In this document: piece after piece, positions 2,565-8,514 of the stretch | Numbering within the stretch: the stretch's first letter is position 1 | How the letters are laid out: each line of letters begins with the position of its first letter | IMG/VR virus record: IMGVR_UViG_2974630879_000001 | Coordinates: 12,336 to 76,335 of that record | Source of the DNA: a virus | Taxonomy: Duplodnaviria > Caudoviricetes | Length of the DNA stretch: 64,000 nt | Strand: one strand, 5' to 3' | Translations under genes and position numbers: made by a program | Notes under the pieces: generated by a model | Seen by the model: the letters and a program-made list of their open reading frames with translations, nothing else | Told to the model about the DNA's origin: nothing | Databases searched by the model: none

Positions 2565-2798
2565 GGTGCTCCGGACCCATGAATCTGGAGTATGTCTTCT
2601 GGGAAGACTGTATGAGGCCGTGAGGCTTTAAGACCATGCAGACAGGCTCCGTCCTGGCAGGGGGTGAAAACCCCCCACCTATAAAGAGCATTGAGAAGTC
2701 CACTTAGCGCACGTGCTCTTGAAGTAAAAGAGCTGAAGTTAAAACGTCCATAACGCATGTTGCCAACGGCTGATTGCGGTGGACTTCTGAGTGCTTTT
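2565..2798 (+). ncRNA. putative structured RNA / 5' leader
   Basis: ORF-free 270-nt gap with serial hairpins (two with GNRA loops, GTGA and GAAA) and a ~19-bp long-range stem 2684-2703/2779-2798. Confidence 0.5.
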
Positions 2799-2826
2799 AC
2801 CCCAACCAACAACTGTGGAGTTACCC

Positions 2827-4836
2827 ATGTCTGAATTTACCAAGTTCGGTGCAGCCGTTGCTGCACGCTTCGCCCTGATGTGCTCATTCGGTGAGCTGTA
2901 TCGCACGACTGCAAGTGCTGATGATCTGTGGAATCTGTATCTGGCTTCCTTCCCTGAAGGCACCAATCCGATCTTCCGTGAGCGTACTGAGCATGATGGT
3001 TCCTATGACAGGAACTTCATCAAGCGGCTTGGCAACGTTGTTGCTATCGATCCGAGCAACGATCAAGTTATTTCGCTGTGGAACAGTCTGGAAAACCTTC
3101 CATATCCCTACGATGTGGTAGCTCAAAAGATGGCTGATTATGTTGGTCGCCACGAGATTACAAATCTCTTCCGAACCAAGGAGCTGGATGCAGGCCATAA
3201 GCCGAACTTCGAGCTGATCAATGGTCGTCAGCATCAGTGGACGCACTTCTATGTTCGTCTGCCCAACTTCGTCATCACTCGTGATGCAGGTGCTGCTATC
3301 GGTCAACGTGCAACGAATGTCGCTGTGATGTTCCGTAGCCTGACTGAAATCAACCAGAGTGCTATCGTCGATGTTCTGGATCTGATCGAGCAGAATGCGT
3401 TGTATCGTGGTGAAGAGCATAAGCCTGCTCTGCTGGCATTTCAGAAAGCGCAGAATAACTTTCTGATGACTCTGGAAGGTAAGCACAATACGTGGCTGTG
3501 GAAAAACAGCACTAACAACGTGCTGATGATCAAGAACACCGCTATCGGCACTCTGCTGGTAGACCTGTCTGATGGCATGCCATTGGATCAGGCAGTGAAG
3601 TCGTTCGAGTCGAAGGTGGCTCCTGCCAACTACAAGCGTACGTCTGCACTGATCACCCCTGGGATGGTCAATAGTGCAATGCTGAAGATCAACGAGCTGG
3701 GCTATCAGAACAGCTTGTATCGTCGTCATGCTGTACTGGCTGATATCAATGTCAACGATATCGAGTGGGCCGATGCTTCTGCAAAGAATGTCATGGCCGG
3801 CTCCATTGGTGATGTCCTGATGCAGGCTGCTGTCAAAAAAGCTCCCAAGGCTGACAAGCTCGAAGAGATCAGCATTGAAGACTTCATGTCTACTGTGCTG
3901 CCGAAGGCTAGCAGCATGGAGCTGTTCGTCAGCAATAAGCTGACTCAGAATTTGGTCAACATCACTGCACCATTCGATGCAGATGCTCCGTCACTGTTCA
4001 AGTGGGACAATGCCTTTGGCTGGTCCTACAAGGGCAATGTGACTGACTCGATCAAGGAACGTGTCAAGGCAGCTGGTGGCAATATCAAGGCAGACCTTCG
4101 TGTCTCGTTGGCATGGCACAACAGTGACGATCTCGATTTGCACTGTGTGACTCCTGGTCGTGAACACATCAACTTCAGCCACAAGGCTGGCGTACTCGAT
4201 GTCGATATGAATGGTCCGTATCAAAAGGATGATCGTAATCCTGTTGAGAATATGGCCTTCATGCGTCCTCGTGACGGTGTTTACGCCTTCAGCGTCGATC
4301 AGTACTCAGCTCGTAGCAACAACCAAACCCGTCCGGGTTTCACGTTGCAAGTCGAGTGTGGTGGTGAACTCCATGAGTTGACCTATCAGCCTGCAATGCG
4401 TAGTCGTGCTATGGCTTGCATCTCGATTGAGATGAAGGGCGGTGTCATCAAGGAACTGAAGGTTCTGAATGACAAGCTGATTCACCAGGGTCGTTCGCAG
4501 AAGATCAATGGTGTCAACACTGAGTCCTTTGTCCGGGTCTCGACCATGATGTTCTCTCCGAACTACTGGGGCGATCAGCATATCGGCAACAAGCATTACA
4601 TCTTCCTGTTGGAAGGTGCACAGACTGATGAACCTGTTCGTGGTATCTACAATGAGTTCTTGAAGTCTGAGCTGGATGAACATCGTAAGGTGTTCGAAGT
4701 GCTGGGAGCCAAGACGGTTATTCAGCCGCAAGGTGAACAGCTAGCCGGTATCGGCTTCAGTTCTACTGTTCGTAATTCGGCACTGATCAAGGTGTCGGGT
4801 CCAACCATCAACAAGACCTACAAGGTCATGTTCTAA
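2827..4836 (+). CDS. conserved phage protein, ~669 aa, with YfaP/DUF2135-like segment
   Basis: ATG at 2827 after GGAG. Segment DLRVSLAWHNSDDLDLHCVTPG...LDVDMNG resembles the YfaP-like domain. Confidence 0.7.
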   Translation: MSEFTKFGAAVAARFALMCSFGELYRTTASADDLWNLYLASFPEGTNPIFRERTEHDGSYDRNFIKRLGNVVAIDPSNDQVISLWNSLENLPYPYDVVAQKMADYVGRHEITNLFRTKELDAGHKPNFELINGRQHQWTHFYVRLPNFVITRDAGAAIGQRATNVAVMFRSLTEINQSAIVDVLDLIEQNALYRGEEHKPALLAFQKAQNNFLMTLEGKHNTWLWKNSTNNVLMIKNTAIGTLLVDLSDGMPLDQAVKSFESKVAPANYKRTSALITPGMVNSAMLKINELGYQNSLYRRHAVLADINVNDIEWADASAKNVMAGSIGDVLMQAAVKKAPKADKLEEISIEDFMSTVLPKASSMELFVSNKLTQNLVNITAPFDADAPSLFKWDNAFGWSYKGNVTDSIKERVKAAGGNIKADLRVSLAWHNSDDLDLHCVTPGREHINFSHKAGVLDVDMNGPYQKDDRNPVENMAFMRPRDGVYAFSVDQYSARSNNQTRPGFTLQVECGGELHELTYQPAMRSRAMACISIEMKGGVIKELKVLNDKLIHQGRSQKINGVNTESFVRVSTMMFSPNYWGDQHIGNKHYIFLLEGAQTDEPVRGIYNEFLKSELDEHRKVFEVLGAKTVIQPQGEQLAGIGFSSTVRNSALIKVSGPTINKTYKVMF

Positions 4837-4845
4837 GGAATCAAC

Positions 4846-5256
4846 ATGTCTGAGAAGAACATTTTCGAGCAAGCCACTCGTGCTGCTGCTCGATTCCCTT
4901 CGCCGGTTGGTGATCTCTCAACTGAGCAACTGTGGTCGCTGCCCTTGACTTCGCTCAAGGGTGCTGACCTCAACGGCATTGCTGTGTCCGTCAACCGTGA
5001 GTTGAAGGCACAGGGCGAGGAGTCCTTCGTGGACACCAAGCCGAATGCCAAGTCTGCTCTCCTGGCTCTGAAGCTCGATGTGCTGAAACACATCATTGCC
5101 GTCAAGCAGGCTGAGAACGCCGAGAAGCTCGACGCTCAGCGTCGTGCAGCGGAGATCGCCAAGATCGAAGAGATCCTCGTGTCGAAGCAGACGGACGCCT
5201 TGGCGTCGAGTTCTGTCGAAGACCTGGAAAAGCGACTGGCAGAGCTGCGCAAGTAA
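4846..5256 (+). CDS. conserved phage coiled-coil protein, 136 aa
   Basis: AAGGA RBS, 9 nt after the previous stop; helical and charged C-terminus. Confidence 0.8.
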   Translation: MSEKNIFEQATRAAARFPSPVGDLSTEQLWSLPLTSLKGADLNGIAVSVNRELKAQGEESFVDTKPNAKSALLALKLDVLKHIIAVKQAENAEKLDAQRRAAEIAKIEEILVSKQTDALASSSVEDLEKRLAELRK

Positions 5257-5267
5257 TACCGTTTTAT

Positions 5268-5437
5268 GGATTACCTAGGTGTGCAACAGTGGAACGCTTG
5301 GACAATAGCTACGTCTGAGTTAGGTCATTCGAGCGGGATCGGCCCGTACCAAGAAGCTGCCAAGACACTTACCGCAACACCGTCCATGGGGGTGAGAATG
5401 TGAAGGATGAAAGCGGCTTTCACTAGGTAATCCGCCA
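5268..5437 (+). ncRNA. oversized tRNA-like RNA A (170 nt, G-CCA end)
   Basis: Perfect 11-bp terminal stem GGATTACCTAG (5268-5278)/CTAGGTAATCC (5423-5433) followed by G-CCA; internal hairpins; AT at -2/-1. Confidence 0.6.
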
Positions 5438-5445
5438 TATGTAAG

Positions 5446-5471
5446 GGGGCCACTCAATAGGGAGTGGCCCC
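5446..5471 (+). other. 10-bp perfect hairpin immediately 5' of the hammerhead
   Basis: GGGGCCACTC-AATAGG-GAGTGGCCCC; no U-tract follows. Confidence 0.7.
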
Positions 5472-5473
5472 AT

Positions 5474-5523
5474 GCCAATCTGATGAGTCCGTTAGGACGA
5501 AACACACTCTGTGTGTAATTGGC
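5474..5523 (+). ncRNA. type I hammerhead ribozyme
   Basis: GCCAAT-CTGATGA-GTCC(GTTA)GGAC-GAAA-CACAC(TCT)GTGTG-TA-ATTGGC: complete core with three paired stems; predicted cleavage after GTA at 5517. Confidence 0.95.
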
Positions 5524-5864
5524 TGTTTGAGATGAAAGGGTGCCACCCTGGAATCAATATTGTTCAGCCCGTCGCCAATGCGATCATTGGCTAATTCAGC
5601 ACTGAGGATGTGCTGCACCTGTTCAGTACCCTCGCAAGGTACGTTGAACCAGGGGACGCAAGTAACCCTTAGAGGCGTGTATAACCGGGAGTCTAAATCC
5701 GGTGCTGTGTCCTAATTCACAGTGAGTTGATACCAAATAGAGAAGATTAGGCTCGCTTGGTTAAGCACTCGTAGACTTGGCAACTACATACACGTCTCGC
5801 CTTCATATATTTGAGGTAGCAACCCACTTGTGCTCTTGTACAAGATAGTCTAAGGTTGCTGCCA
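5524..5864 (+). ncRNA. putative large structured RNA between the hammerhead and the first tRNA
   Basis: Many 5-11-bp helices, including 5672-5682/5788-5798 and 5815-5824/5854-5863; no credible ORF. Confidence 0.5.
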
Positions 5865-5873
5865 CAACGCTTT

Positions 5874-5949
5874 CGCGGGATAGTTCAGTTGGCAGAACAC
5901 CGGACTCATAATCCGGATGTCGTCGGTTCGAATCCGACTCCCGCAACCA
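5874..5949 (+). tRNA. tRNA-fMet: tRNA-fMet-like (CAT)
   Basis: 76-nt cloverleaf, C1:A72 mismatch, anticodon CAT at 5907-5909, T-loop TTCGAAT, encoded CCA. Confidence 0.93.
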
Positions 5950-5956
5950 GTTTCAT

Positions 5957-6042
5957 GAGGGTGAGTAGCTCTGGCGTGGCATCGGCCATCAACTAGCTGG
6001 AAGCTCATTAACGTCAGAGTTGAGTTCCTGAGACCTTCGCCA
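5957..6042 (+). pseudogene. degenerate tRNA-like element (86 nt, G-CCA end)
   Basis: Six-bp acceptor GAGGGT/ACCTTC, G-CCA, bulged T-arm with loop TTGAGTT; poor D and anticodon arms; same GTTTCAT leader as tRNA-Ser. Confidence 0.55.
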
Positions 6043-6046
6043 GTTT

Positions 6047-6128
6047 TGACCATCTCCCTGTAAATTTCAGTGGAGGCGTCCCTGCCAGCTCACGACCGTG
6101 AGTGGAATTCGCATCAGGGGGATGGTCA
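6047..6128 (+). ncRNA. putative 82-nt structured RNA closed by a 14-bp stem
   Basis: TGACCATCTCCCTG (6047-6060)/CAGGGGGATGGTCA (6115-6128), one G-U pair; inner hairpin CTCAC-GACC-GTGAG. Confidence 0.5.
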
Positions 6129-6131
6129 TCT

Positions 6132-6207
6132 TGTGGGATAGCTCAGTTGGTAGAGCATTGCCCTGATAAGGCAAGGGTCACTGGTTCGAGTCCAGTTCCT
6201 ACAACCA
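6132..6207 (+). tRNA. tRNA-Ile: tRNA-Ile (GAT)
   Basis: 76-nt cloverleaf; anticodon arm TTGCC-CTGATAA-GGCAA; T-loop TTCGAGT; CCA. Confidence 0.96.
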
Positions 6208-6215
6208 GTTTCAAT

Positions 6216-6266
6216 GGGCGGCGCAGATTTGCTCTTTGTGGGTTTAATTCCCATGGCTGTCCACCA
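6216..6266 (+). ncRNA. 51-nt acceptor/T-arm minihelix with alanine identity elements
   Basis: Acceptor GGGCGGC/GCTGTCC (G1-C72, G2-C71, G3-U70), A73, CCA; T-arm GTGGG-TTTAATT-CCCAT; only 14 nt in place of the D, anticodon and variable arms. Confidence 0.65.
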
Positions 6267-6279
6267 GCTCTTTGACAAT

Positions 6280-6365
6280 GGATCGGGTTATCAGATGGGC
6301 GCTGAGGCAGACTGTAAATCTGCCGTCTCAGGACTCGCTTGGTTCGACTCCAAGCTGATCCACCA
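6280..6365 (+). tRNA. tRNA-Tyr: tRNA-Tyr (GTA)
   Basis: 86 nt; GCAGA-CTGTAAA-TCTGC anticodon arm; long variable arm; T-loop TTCGACT; CCA. Confidence 0.93.
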
Positions 6366-6381
6366 GTCAAACACGTTTCAT

Positions 6382-6467
6382 GGGTTGTTCCGCCGTATGG
6401 ACGGCAAGCGGTCTTGAACACCGTGGCATCCGAAAGGTTGAGGGTTCGATTCCTTAACAACCCGCCA
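6382..6467 (+). tRNA. tRNA-Ser: tRNA-Ser (TGA)
   Basis: 86 nt; GCGGT-CTTGAAC-ACCGT; variable arm with GAAA loop; G73-CCA. Confidence 0.93.
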
Positions 6468-6474
6468 TAGCTTC

Positions 6475-6551
6475 ATGGGATTAGCACAGCTTGGTAGTGC
6501 GTCTGCTTTGGGAGCAGAAGGTCACAGGTTCGAATCCTGTATCCCGTACCA
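6475..6551 (+). tRNA. tRNA-Pro: tRNA-Pro (TGG)
   Basis: 77 nt; TCTGC-TTTGGGA-GCAGA; T-loop TTCGAAT; CCA. Confidence 0.95.
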
Positions 6552-6553
6552 AA

Positions 6554-6849
6554 TGAACTTGTAGGAGTAGGACGAGTACAGTCCTGAAGCCGTGCAGCGG
6601 TCTTACTACAGGCATAGCCAGATGGCTGCACTACATCTTGGCACTTGTTCAACTATTGCTGGTGGACCAGCGTAGGCACTCAGCGAACCTGTACTGCCGA
6701 GTTTTCATGGTATGGAGACATAGTTGTTCGAACTGCTACCACATGTACTTCCCCTCGCCGACAGGTCAGACACGGGGAGCTACCATCTCAGGGCAAATCC
6801 CTGAGGGTGAATGAAGATAGATGCCTTCAAGGCATGCGGATAGCAGTTC
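6554..6849 (+). ncRNA. putative structured RNA between tRNA-Pro and tRNA-Thr
   Basis: Perfect 9-bp 6730-6738/6841-6849 closes a three-hairpin junction; a second junction is closed by 6558-6564/6606-6612. Confidence 0.45.
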
Positions 6850-6860
6850 CTTTTCAATAT

Positions 6861-6936
6861 GCTGCCTTAGCTCAGCTGGGAGAGCACCTGCCTTGTAAGC
6901 AGGCGGTCCACAGTTCAATCCTGTGAGGCAGCACCA
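6861..6936 (+). tRNA. tRNA-Thr: tRNA-Thr (TGT)
   Basis: 76-nt cloverleaf; CCTGC-CTTGTAA-GCAGG; CCA. Confidence 0.96.
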
Positions 6937-7105
6937 AGCAGCGGTAGTTATGGGTAACTACCAGTGGTGCGACACTGTTACACAATCCAGATTCTAGATA
7001 CTGGCCGTGTCAAGCAAAAACACAAATGGGAACCCTTTGAGTAACGCCGAGTCCTCATCAGAGAATCAGGCCGTTGCGCTGATCAGCGTTAATCTTCAGC
7101 ACTAT

Positions 7106-7180
7106 AGGGGAATCGTACAGCGGTCAGTACCCCAACCTTTGACGTTGGTAACCTTGGTTCAAATCCAAGTTCCTCTTCCA
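7106..7180 (+). tRNA. tRNA-Gln: tRNA-Gln (TTG)
   Basis: 75 nt; CCAAC-CTTTGAC-GTTGG; T-loop TTCAAAT; CCA. Confidence 0.93.
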
Positions 7181-7191
7181 ATTCTTTTTAT

Positions 7192-7351
7192 GGTGTGGGT
7201 GCGATCAGAGACATCTGATAGCTTCCATAATGCAACTACGTCTGCTTGCAGGCTAGTGAGCTTCTGTACGACATTAGTAGTTGGCTGTTGCAGCCTCACC
7301 AACGTTGTCAAGTACAGCATGCAGGTAATCAATCCTGTGCCTACACCGCCA
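7192..7351 (+). ncRNA. oversized tRNA-like RNA B (160 nt, G-CCA end)
   Basis: 9-bp terminal stem GGTGTGGGT/GCCTACACC plus G-CCA; four arms in cloverleaf order; shares CTACGTCTG with RNA A at a similar offset. Confidence 0.62.
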
Positions 7352-7358
7352 TCTCAAT

Positions 7359-7408
7359 GTCGCCCTGGGAACTACCGGAAGGGTAGTCTTCCGCCTGGGG
7401 CGGCTCCA
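7359..7408 (+). ncRNA. 50-nt hairpin RNA ending in T-CCA
   Basis: 11-bp stem GTCGCCCTGGG/CCTGGGGCGGC followed by T-CCA; AT at -2/-1. Confidence 0.5.
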
Positions 7409-7411
7409 TAA

Positions 7412-7915
7412 AGACTGGATGACTTCATCCTTCAAGACGGTCTATAAATGTCCACGAAGGGTAGTTTGTCCCTACTAGAACGGGATAGTCAGTTGTGAGT
7501 CCGAATTCTTTAATACGAACTCTCCGTGCATACAGTTGCAGGATTTCAAACACGTAAACTACCAGAACCTGACAGATGTAGTCCTTGAGGCTGCATCTGG
7601 GAATTCTTCCGCAAGTTAGTGACTGACGGTGTAGCTATCGCGCTGCCGTAAAAACATTGTGAGACCTGAGAGGGAGGTGATATCACCCACGACGGTCGGC
7701 GAACACTAGCCTGATCAGCTAAAAAGCTAGGAGAATTTCCAGATGTTGCTTCAACAAGAAGAGCGCATGGCTTATCAACCATAACGCATAGATGCTTGGC
7801 TTACCTAAGCAACATCGTCTACAGACCCACTTTGCTGAGTGCTCAACAGAGAGCCGTAGCTTCCGAATGTGATCCCCTGTCACGGTAGAAGTTATGCGGA
7901 GTCATGATCCGGCTC
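7412..7915 (+). ncRNA. putative ~500-nt structured RNA
   Basis: Uninterrupted 17-bp helix 7593-7609/7730-7746, 8-bp 7460-7467/7556-7563, 6-bp 7851-7856/7910-7915; no credible ORF. Confidence 0.5.
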
Positions 7916-7925
7916 AGCTCCCCTT

Positions 7926-7960
7926 AAAAGCTCAGACATTCGTCTGGGCTTTTATTTTTT
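7926..7960 (+). terminator. intrinsic terminator closing the RNA island
   Basis: AAAAGCTCAGAC-ATTC-GTCTGGGCTTTT followed by ATTTTTT. Confidence 0.85.
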
Positions 7961-7970
7961 GGAGATCATC

Positions 7971-8303
7971 ATGAGCGATACCTTCGACCATGAAGCTGAA
8001 GCGTGGGATGATCGTGATCGACGAGAAGATGCCGATGATGATCTCCCAACATTCATGCGTCGCCGCAAGGAACCAAGACGGGAATATGTCCCGTATCAAA
8101 GACCCGAGCCGACCTATCAAGCCTTTCCTCTGATTCGTGAAGTACACGAGACTGAGAAGGCTCACCTCGTTGTATTCACTTTCGATGACGAGGACATCGA
8201 GAGGTGGCTTCCTAAATCACAATGCCGCATTCCCTACGCTGACTTGATCGAGATATCGACATGGCTGGTAGGCAGAATAAAGGATGAGATCAATGGCAGA
8301 TGA
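7971..8303 (+). CDS. hypothetical protein
   Basis: GGAG RBS before the ATG at 7971; acidic N-terminus. Confidence 0.75.
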   Translation: MSDTFDHEAEAWDDRDRREDADDDLPTFMRRRKEPRREYVPYQRPEPTYQAFPLIREVHETEKAHLVVFTFDDEDIERWLPKSQCRIPYADLIEISTWLVGRIKDEINGR

Positions 8304-8514
8304 CAAACAAGTAGCCATACCACTATCGGTAATAGCTGACGCTTTAGATTGCTTCTGGAATCCTGCCGTCAATGCAATTCGAGATGCTTCATATCATGGT
8401 CCAGCATCTGGTGCCGATGTTGTTAGTGCCATTGCAAATGGCCTTGCAGCTGTAGCTGCTCACTTACGCGAACATGCTAACGAGCAGCGACCAGACGCGA
8501 AGGAAAGCTCCTAA
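8293..8514 (+). CDS. hypothetical protein
   Basis: Overlaps the previous stop; part of an operon-like array of small genes. Confidence 0.65.
   Translation: MADDKQVAIPLSVIADALDCFWNPAVNAIRDASYHGPASGADVVSAIANGLAAVAAHLREHANEQRPDAKESS

Follow-up and report, generated by a model that had tools for sequence, protein, structure and literature searches.

A compact type I hammerhead motif at the head of an RNA island in a Pokkenvirus-like phage

What hammerhead ribozymes do for the phages that carry them has been an open question since their discovery there in 2011. Perreault et al. 2011 (PMC3088659) described hundreds of bacterial hammerheads, many of them near prophage integrase genes, named PaP3, Bcep176 and HF1/HF2 as phage examples, and proposed that the ribozymes cut long phage transcripts into units. 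Self-cleavage was reported in the same work in vitro for the multi-hammerhead arrangements that were tested and in vivo for a trio from A. tumefaciens, and cleavage was slower for a core variant from phage Bcep176. A 2019 review (PMC6765202) still called the function of hammerheads open. The locus studied here poses the question for a single 50-nt sequence within a stretch of phage DNA of 64,000 nucleotides (hereafter the window), where a first-pass annotation had read a textbook type I hammerhead ahead of a group of tRNA genes. Is this a genuine ribozyme, what would it do to the transcript that contains it, and is its setting peculiar to this phage?

All of the elements claimed for the motif are present in the sequence, on the plus strand, at the positions collected in Table 1. 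The topology is that of type I, with stems II and III capped and stem I open. Helices I, II and III have 6, 4 and 6 bp, respectively, and there is no mispair beside the core: the core-adjacent pairs are all standard (G5487-C5498 at 10.1-11.1, A5518-U5479 at 1.1-2.1 and A5502-U5516 at 15.1-16.1). The nucleotide at the cleavage site, A5517, satisfies H17 (not G) after U16.1, and the bond between 5517 and 5518 is the one that we take to be scissile, having placed the established hammerhead consensus on this sequence. G5482 and G5499, which had been proposed earlier as positions for core mutants, correspond to core G5 and core G12. As an isolated 50-mer the sequence adopts the three-way junction as its minimum free energy (MFE) fold (-16.3 kcal/mol, z -3.25). 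We rejected a type III reading in which the upstream hairpin serves as stem I, as this hairpin does not abut the core.

Table 1. Features of the hammerhead locus and its surroundings, in positions of the window.
Feature	Position	Strand	Basis and remarks
681-aa gene	2791-4836		Conserved; no Pfam family
136-aa gene	4846-5256		Conserved; no Pfam family; ORF-free island begins after its stop
RNA A, structured, 170 nt	5268-5437	+	Perfect 11-bp terminal stem, then G and CCA; fold and sequence
GC-rich hairpin, 10 pairs in predicted folds	5445-5471	+	Two bases upstream of the hammerhead; without U-tract
Hammerhead motif, whole, 50 nt	5474-5523	+	Read from sequence
Stem I, 5' strand GCCAAU	5474-5479	+	Sequence; paired with 5518-5523 in MFE fold
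Catalytic core C3-A9, CUGAUGA	5480-5486	+	Sequence; aligns to invariant core of model R1
Stem II hairpin, 4 bp GUCC/GGAC, loop GUUA	5487-5490 with 5495-5498	+	Starts with G10.1-C11.1; sequence, MFE fold, model R1
Core G12 A13 A14 (GAA)	5499-5501	+	Sequence; model R1 alignment
Stem III hairpin, 6 bp including A15.1-U16.1, loop UCU	5502-5507 with 5511-5516	+	Sequence, MFE fold
Predicted scissile bond, A17/A1.1; triplet GUA	5517/5518; triplet 5515-5517	+	Hammerhead consensus applied to sequence
Stem I, 3' strand AUUGGC	5518-5523	+	Sequence, MFE fold; would form the start of the downstream RNA, with a 5'-OH
Structured RNA between predicted cut and tRNA-Met, 356 nt	5518-5873	+	Fold z -2.68
Predicted competing helix	5521-5525 with 5566-5570	+	Predicted folds; displaces stem I at equilibrium
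7-bp hairpin repeating both stem I hexamers (GCCAAU, AUUGGC)	5575-5592	+	52 nt 3' of the ribozyme
Seven tRNAs: Met, Ile, Tyr, Ser, Pro, Thr, Gln	5874-7180	+	ARAGORN; Rfam
Intrinsic-terminator-like hairpin with T-run, end of RNA island	7925-7954	+	Terminator scan

A descriptor scan for the core and the three helices, run over both strands of the 76,335-bp genome, found this motif and no other. In 300 dinucleotide-preserving shuffles a loose form of the descriptor gave 0.04 matches per genome, and stems as long as 6/4/6 bp occurred in none of the 300 shuffled genomes. We also used a covariance model, R1, which was made from 17 type I hammerheads of other phage contigs with the window's motif excluded. 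With R1 the motif scores 31.8 bits (E 1.4e-8), a value in the lower part of the score range of the class under this model, and the next best site in the 64-kb window scores 11.7 bits. The class itself covaries: in 132 R1 matches, 96% of the helix cells are paired, and changes on both sides are seen at 13 of 15 pairs. The motif is non-random and is a member of this covarying phage class, and its identification as a complete type I hammerhead is borne out by sequence, fold, shuffles and an independent covariance model.

Rfam, used with its gathering thresholds, does not report a hammerhead family at this locus. RF00163 gives no match at the motif site, and RF00008, at a permissive threshold, gives 25 bits against a gathering cut-off of 48.5; we discarded the type III reading that it implies, which is a mis-threaded partial match. 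The best members of the phage class (L043, L053, L117 and others) reach 67-72 bits with R1, yet they too lie below the Rfam cut-offs. When eight loci (L043, L053, L086, L090, L117, L135, L089 and L104) were annotated at gathering thresholds, the 119 matches were 118 tRNAs and one COG2908 RNA, and none of the clear hammerheads of these loci (39-72 bits with R1) was among them. Because clear members of the class also fail the cut-offs, the negative Rfam result reflects a gap in the models and is not counter-evidence. The Rfam models miss the compact phage type I class at their cut-offs, with the consequence that routine annotation under-counts such ribozymes.

The window comprises bases 12336-76335 of a complete IMG/VR phage record of 76,335 bp with direct terminal repeats. 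The product of the 681-aa gene is 62-68% identical to those of genes in PB119, a Xanthomonas virus, and in the Stenotrophomonas phages Paxi, Piffle and Pokken, all of them Schitoviridae of the genus Pokkenvirus. On the strength of this similarity we regard the phage as N4-like and Pokkenvirus-like, and its host is probably a relative of Xanthomonas or Stenotrophomonas. Most homologues of the 681-aa product carry no annotation, and the names given to the others disagree: "RNA polymerase" in some records, "structural protein" or "ABC protein" in single ones. From position 1 to about 12.8 kb of the window, the long ORFs, with few exceptions, and all seven tRNAs lie on the plus strand, and the hammerhead is co-oriented with all nearby genes and tRNAs.

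The description of the motif as standing at the head of the tRNA cluster holds in part. It does head an ORF-free RNA island, but the first tRNA (at 5874) begins 356 nt past the predicted cut. Neither ARAGORN nor Rfam calls a tRNA at 5518, and the cut does not coincide with position +1 of a tRNA. The intervening 5518-5873 contains no credible ORF and no Rfam family, and has no similarity in the relatives or in GenBank phages. On the other side of the motif, the end of RNA A resembles a tRNA acceptor end, with no tRNA called there by ARAGORN or Rfam, and the GC-rich hairpin at 5445-5471 is not listed by the terminator scan. No match to the HDV family was found in 5200-7400 at E up to 10, and no sigma-70 promoter was found in 4000-8500, a result that is uninformative for N4-type polymerases. 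A 13-nt direct repeat (5515-5527 and 7277-7289) was judged to be due to chance.

How unusual is this setting? A pattern consisting of the fixed core and the GUCC/GGAC stem II only was matched in IMG/VR by at least 119 contigs. Although the pattern had required none of this, 118 of the 128 matches listed also have a U-H cleavage site and properly formed stems I and III; of these 118, 88 are type I, with stem I usually close to 6 bp long, and the other 30 are type III. The window's hammerhead is a further case of a compact class that occurs abundantly in phages. A co-oriented tRNA lies within 300 nt in 13 of the 128 matches listed, whereas positions chosen at random in these loci would give 5.2, an enrichment that may come in part from both features living in non-coding DNA. 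Among the matches listed, all 18 hammerheads situated 1 kb or less from a tRNA are co-oriented with it. The first-pass annotation had seen the novelty of the motif in its context, and this is weaker than was claimed: IMG/VR contains further cases of hammerheads lying within or next to the tRNA arrays of phages.

L086 and L090, both phage contigs with a large tRNA array, have between them three hammerhead-tRNA-Tyr junctions (L086:8394-8525, L090:6478-6600 and L090:6628-6756) at which the predicted cut lies immediately 5' of the first tRNA base. The tRNAs have a 7-bp acceptor stem, discriminator A and CCA, and the 3' strand of stem I is the start of the acceptor stem. Cleavage at these junctions would yield a mature tRNA 5' end without RNase P, albeit one carrying a 5'-OH. 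A further subclass, with a CUGUCU/AGACAG stem I (L053:622-740, L117:2220-2338, L135:5394-5583, L043 on the minus strand, L089 and L115), is followed directly by a conserved ncRNA. This ncRNA has no Rfam family and sits between tRNAs in arrays of 9-32 tRNAs; the loop GUGGUGU of its hairpin can pair with a downstream ACCACA, past which L053, L089 and L025 have a T-run. A 12-nt signature of this ncRNA is absent from the genome studied here at up to one mismatch. Taken together, the tRNA-Tyr junctions and the CUGUCU subclass make a type I hammerhead directly 5' of a stable RNA a recurring phage habit.

Other contigs of the survey show different arrangements. Four to seven hammerheads lie within a few kb in L081:1887-6201, L110:1042-3366, L120:7385-12067 and L029:2403-3881, which is the arrangement described by Perreault et al. 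2011 (PMC3088659); the window's phage has one only. A short pseudoknot-like motif, CCUUGCGGUGUA followed by UAGGUAACCGC, was seen at L028:11470, 13095, 13364, 13723 and 13937 and at L066:10854. It repeats just upstream of the start codons of successive small genes, and one copy stands directly after a hammerhead.

For the window's own motif, we think it probable, though well short of certain, that it is a genuine compact type I hammerhead which cuts its own transcript and thereby separates the upstream RNA from the 356-nt RNA and the seven tRNAs. Hammerhead cleavage leaves a 2',3'-cyclic phosphate and a 5'-OH end. Once the polymerase had moved past 5523, the 50-nt motif would fold into its three-way junction and cleave itself between A5517 and A5518, in the infected cell as well, we infer. 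The upstream piece would end in the 2',3'-cyclic phosphate after the body of the ribozyme, with the GC-rich hairpin and RNA A 5' of that, and would include the 681-aa and 136-aa genes if these are co-transcribed, as we assume. The downstream RNA would start at 5518 (AUUGGC) with a 5'-OH and would consist of the 356-nt structured ncRNA and then the seven tRNAs; a cut by RNase P at tRNA-Met would set the 3' end of the 356-nt RNA. After cleavage the first bases of the product may re-pair with 5566-5570, so placing the 5' end three bases from a helix, with release of the product and burial of its 5' end as the expected outcome.

The most likely role of the ribozyme would accordingly lie in cutting the transcript and in giving the downstream RNA a 5'-OH, which may in turn affect RNA stability. 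This role fits because the strand, the layout and the other phage hammerheads directly 5' of stable RNAs all agree with it; it is weakened because the ribozyme is missing in all available relatives and because a competing helix is predicted to beat stem I once 5570 has been transcribed, and both of these points are taken up below. In gamma-proteobacterial RNA decay a 5'-OH evades the RNase E activity that is stimulated by a 5'-monophosphate. RNase P, for its part, removes the 5' leaders of tRNAs, and since it would trim them in any case, a 5'-OH leader would be of little benefit to the tRNAs. On such general grounds, any gain from evading RNase E would fall to the 356-nt RNA and not to the tRNAs. 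RtcB, an Rnl2-type ligase and an AAA_33-type kinase were all looked for in the phage and not found, so that any healing or sealing of the ends would be left to the host.

The history of the locus bears on whether this role is an evolved one. At the syntenic position, the intergenic regions of PB119, Paxi, Piffle and Pokken, the nearest four relatives in GenBank, have no hammerhead; a search of these four genomes in full, and of that of Zuri, gave no score above 14.4 bits with R1, and nine more distant IMG/VR loci that have the 136-aa gene lack a hammerhead as well. The ribozyme is therefore absent from all available relatives, and there is no within-lineage conservation or compensatory change to draw upon. 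In a sensitive BLAST comparison the tRNA part of the island is homologous to the four Pokkenvirus relatives; the island head of about 600 nt, from 5257 to about 5855, has no counterpart in them. These relatives share a head of their own (L009-L012, about 6456-6884; about 240-420 nt), which is unrelated to that of the window and contains no other ribozyme class in Rfam at E up to 0.5. Comparison of the sequences thus indicates a replacement of the island head between this phage and its Pokkenvirus relatives, and given the absence in relatives and the unmatched head, the hammerhead came in with a head module specific to this lineage. Neither the 50-mer nor the 617-nt head module had a relevant BLAST match among GenBank phages. 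The exact core-plus-loop pattern has no match in IMG/VR and matches three unrelated hammerheads, with no tRNAs nearby, in metagenome contigs; no close relative with this hammerhead was found by pattern search of the two collections.

From this history one could also conclude that the ribozyme is active but a recent arrival, brought in with the swapped, lineage-specific 600-nt module and playing no role that is tuned to the tRNA array. It would then cleave simply since such cassettes carry hammerheads, much like the sporadic ones across phage genomes. The absence from every available relative, in which unrelated heads adjoin a homologous tRNA part, is in keeping with such an origin, as are the lack of a match for the 617-nt module in GenBank phages and the sporadic and multi-copy occurrence of hammerheads in many unrelated phage contigs. 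We nonetheless consider it rather unlikely. Neither the core nor any of the 16 stem pairs is disrupted, which points either to current selection or to a very recent arrival, the motif is placed precisely between two structured RNAs and, the 12-nt signature of the CUGUCU-subclass ncRNA being absent, no known cassette is recognised.

A second complication for a role in constitutive transcript cutting comes from the predicted folds of longer transcripts. In predicted transcripts that start at 5440 and end at 5523 or 5560, stem I has a pair probability of 0.92-0.93, which falls to 0.55-0.57 once sequence upstream of 5440 is included; stem III stays at 0.94-0.95 in all contexts tested. When 5566-5600 is included, stem I is all but lost, its probability going from 0.93 to 0.0-0.08, and the predicted stability of the hammerhead fold is 3.5 kcal/mol below that of the fold with the competing helix. 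According to these models the hammerhead fold would dominate the nascent transcript up to 5560, and the simplest reading of the competing helix is that it represents the fold of the cleaved product. As for the hairpin at 5575-5592 with its second copy of the stem I hexamers, it may have been left behind by a duplication or may offer an alternative partner for pairing.

The same predictions could be read to mean that the competing helix and the hexamer-repeat hairpin make cleavage partial and dependent on the speed of transcription or on a factor, with the site setting the ratio of read-through to cut RNA instead of cutting constitutively. The collapse of stem I, the difference in stability and the recurrence of the hexamers would all suit such a device, but its basis is thermodynamic prediction, the hammerhead folds first and may stay kinetically trapped, and the alternative fold is explained equally well as that of the product after cleavage. 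Nor is reuse of the 5' strand of stem I by downstream sequence a general property: a "strand-swap" of this kind, which we had entertained for phage hammerheads at large, was seen in 12 of 102 of them compared with 18-21 in controls and was rejected. We regard conditional cleavage as improbable and continue to favour straightforward cutting of the nascent transcript.

Minimal hammerheads are slow at physiological Mg2+, and a tertiary contact between stem I and loop II is needed for fast cleavage under these conditions. No complementary partner for the loop GUUA was found in the flanks, and no stem I-loop II contact was identified; the geometry, with a 4-bp stem II and a 6-bp stem I followed by unpaired flanks, is compatible with one. 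That the motif merely matches the consensus and, for want of tertiary stabilisation, would give no useful cleavage in vivo is very improbable: stem I is indeed short and open, loop II has no recognisable partner, the Rfam cut-offs are not reached and PMC3088659 includes some inactive hammerhead-like sequences, one of them from a Xanthomonas phage, but those were mostly deviants from the core consensus to which the window's motif conforms, over 100 phage contigs have this compact architecture too, with covariation, and the chance expectation from the shuffles is essentially zero.

Set beside known systems, the motif shares with the phage and prophage type I hammerheads (PMC3088659; Rfam clan CL00010, RF00163) the same core, the three-helix junction and the open stem I, and with those of PMC3088659 also a phage intergenic site and the proposed cutting of long phage transcripts into units. 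Unlike them, it lies below the Rfam cut-offs, is present in a single copy rather than as one of several that flank genes, and heads an RNA-only island in an N4-like phage. Its closest likeness is in the compact IMG/VR class (at least 119 contigs), with which it has in common the GUCC/GGAC stem II with a 4-nt loop, the 6-bp stem I, a capped stem III of 5-6 bp and a total length of about 50 nt; about one in ten members of that class, among the matches listed, lie beside co-oriented tRNAs. The cleavage triplet is GUA here and GUC in most of the class, and the flanks are GC-rich here and A/U-rich there. As in the tRNA-Tyr fusions of L086 and L090, the 3' strand of stem I provides the first bases of the downstream RNA; in those fusions, however, the cut falls at tRNA position +1, whereas here 356 nt of non-tRNA sequence come first and the tRNA after.

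A further parallel is offered by the HDV-like theta ribozymes, which Kienbeck et al. 2024 (PMC10879173) tied to the processing of phage tRNA 3' trailers and proposed to spare host RNases in end formation; hammerheads are not mentioned there. In both cases a small self-cleaving ribozyme is found in cis among phage tRNA genes. The fold here is, however, that of a hammerhead and not an HDV-like nested double pseudoknot, and the window's hammerhead, with the predicted cut at its own 3' end, would generate a 5' end, in contrast to the 3' trailers served by theta ribozymes. A 2026 paper (PMC13481778) cites PMC10879173 for "hammerhead ... adjacent to tRNAs in bacteriophages", a statement for which the cited text gives no support. 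In the literature that we searched, the coverage of which is incomplete, no paper dealing with hammerheads in N4-like phages came to light, nor one for phage tRNA arrays.

A broader interpretation is possible, and we offer it tentatively. The hammerhead may be the dedicated former of the 5' end of a new 356-nt RNA, with RNase P at tRNA-Met forming its 3' end, in what would be a self-processing island. It might then be one instance of a general phage strategy in which compact type I hammerheads give stable RNAs, even mature tRNA-Tyr, their 5'-OH ends without recourse to host RNase E or RNase P. We found no description of such a strategy in the literature searched. In this respect, the hammerheads inside phage tRNA arrays, some of which would cut at the first base of a tRNA, an arrangement that the window's own ribozyme does not show, are maybe the more valuable lead.

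For the question of what hammerheads do in phages, the ribozyme described here provides a clean test case: the genome, N4-like and 76 kb long, is complete and has one textbook ribozyme, which lies between two structured RNAs and ahead of seven tRNAs, and relatives that have no hammerhead are possible comparators.
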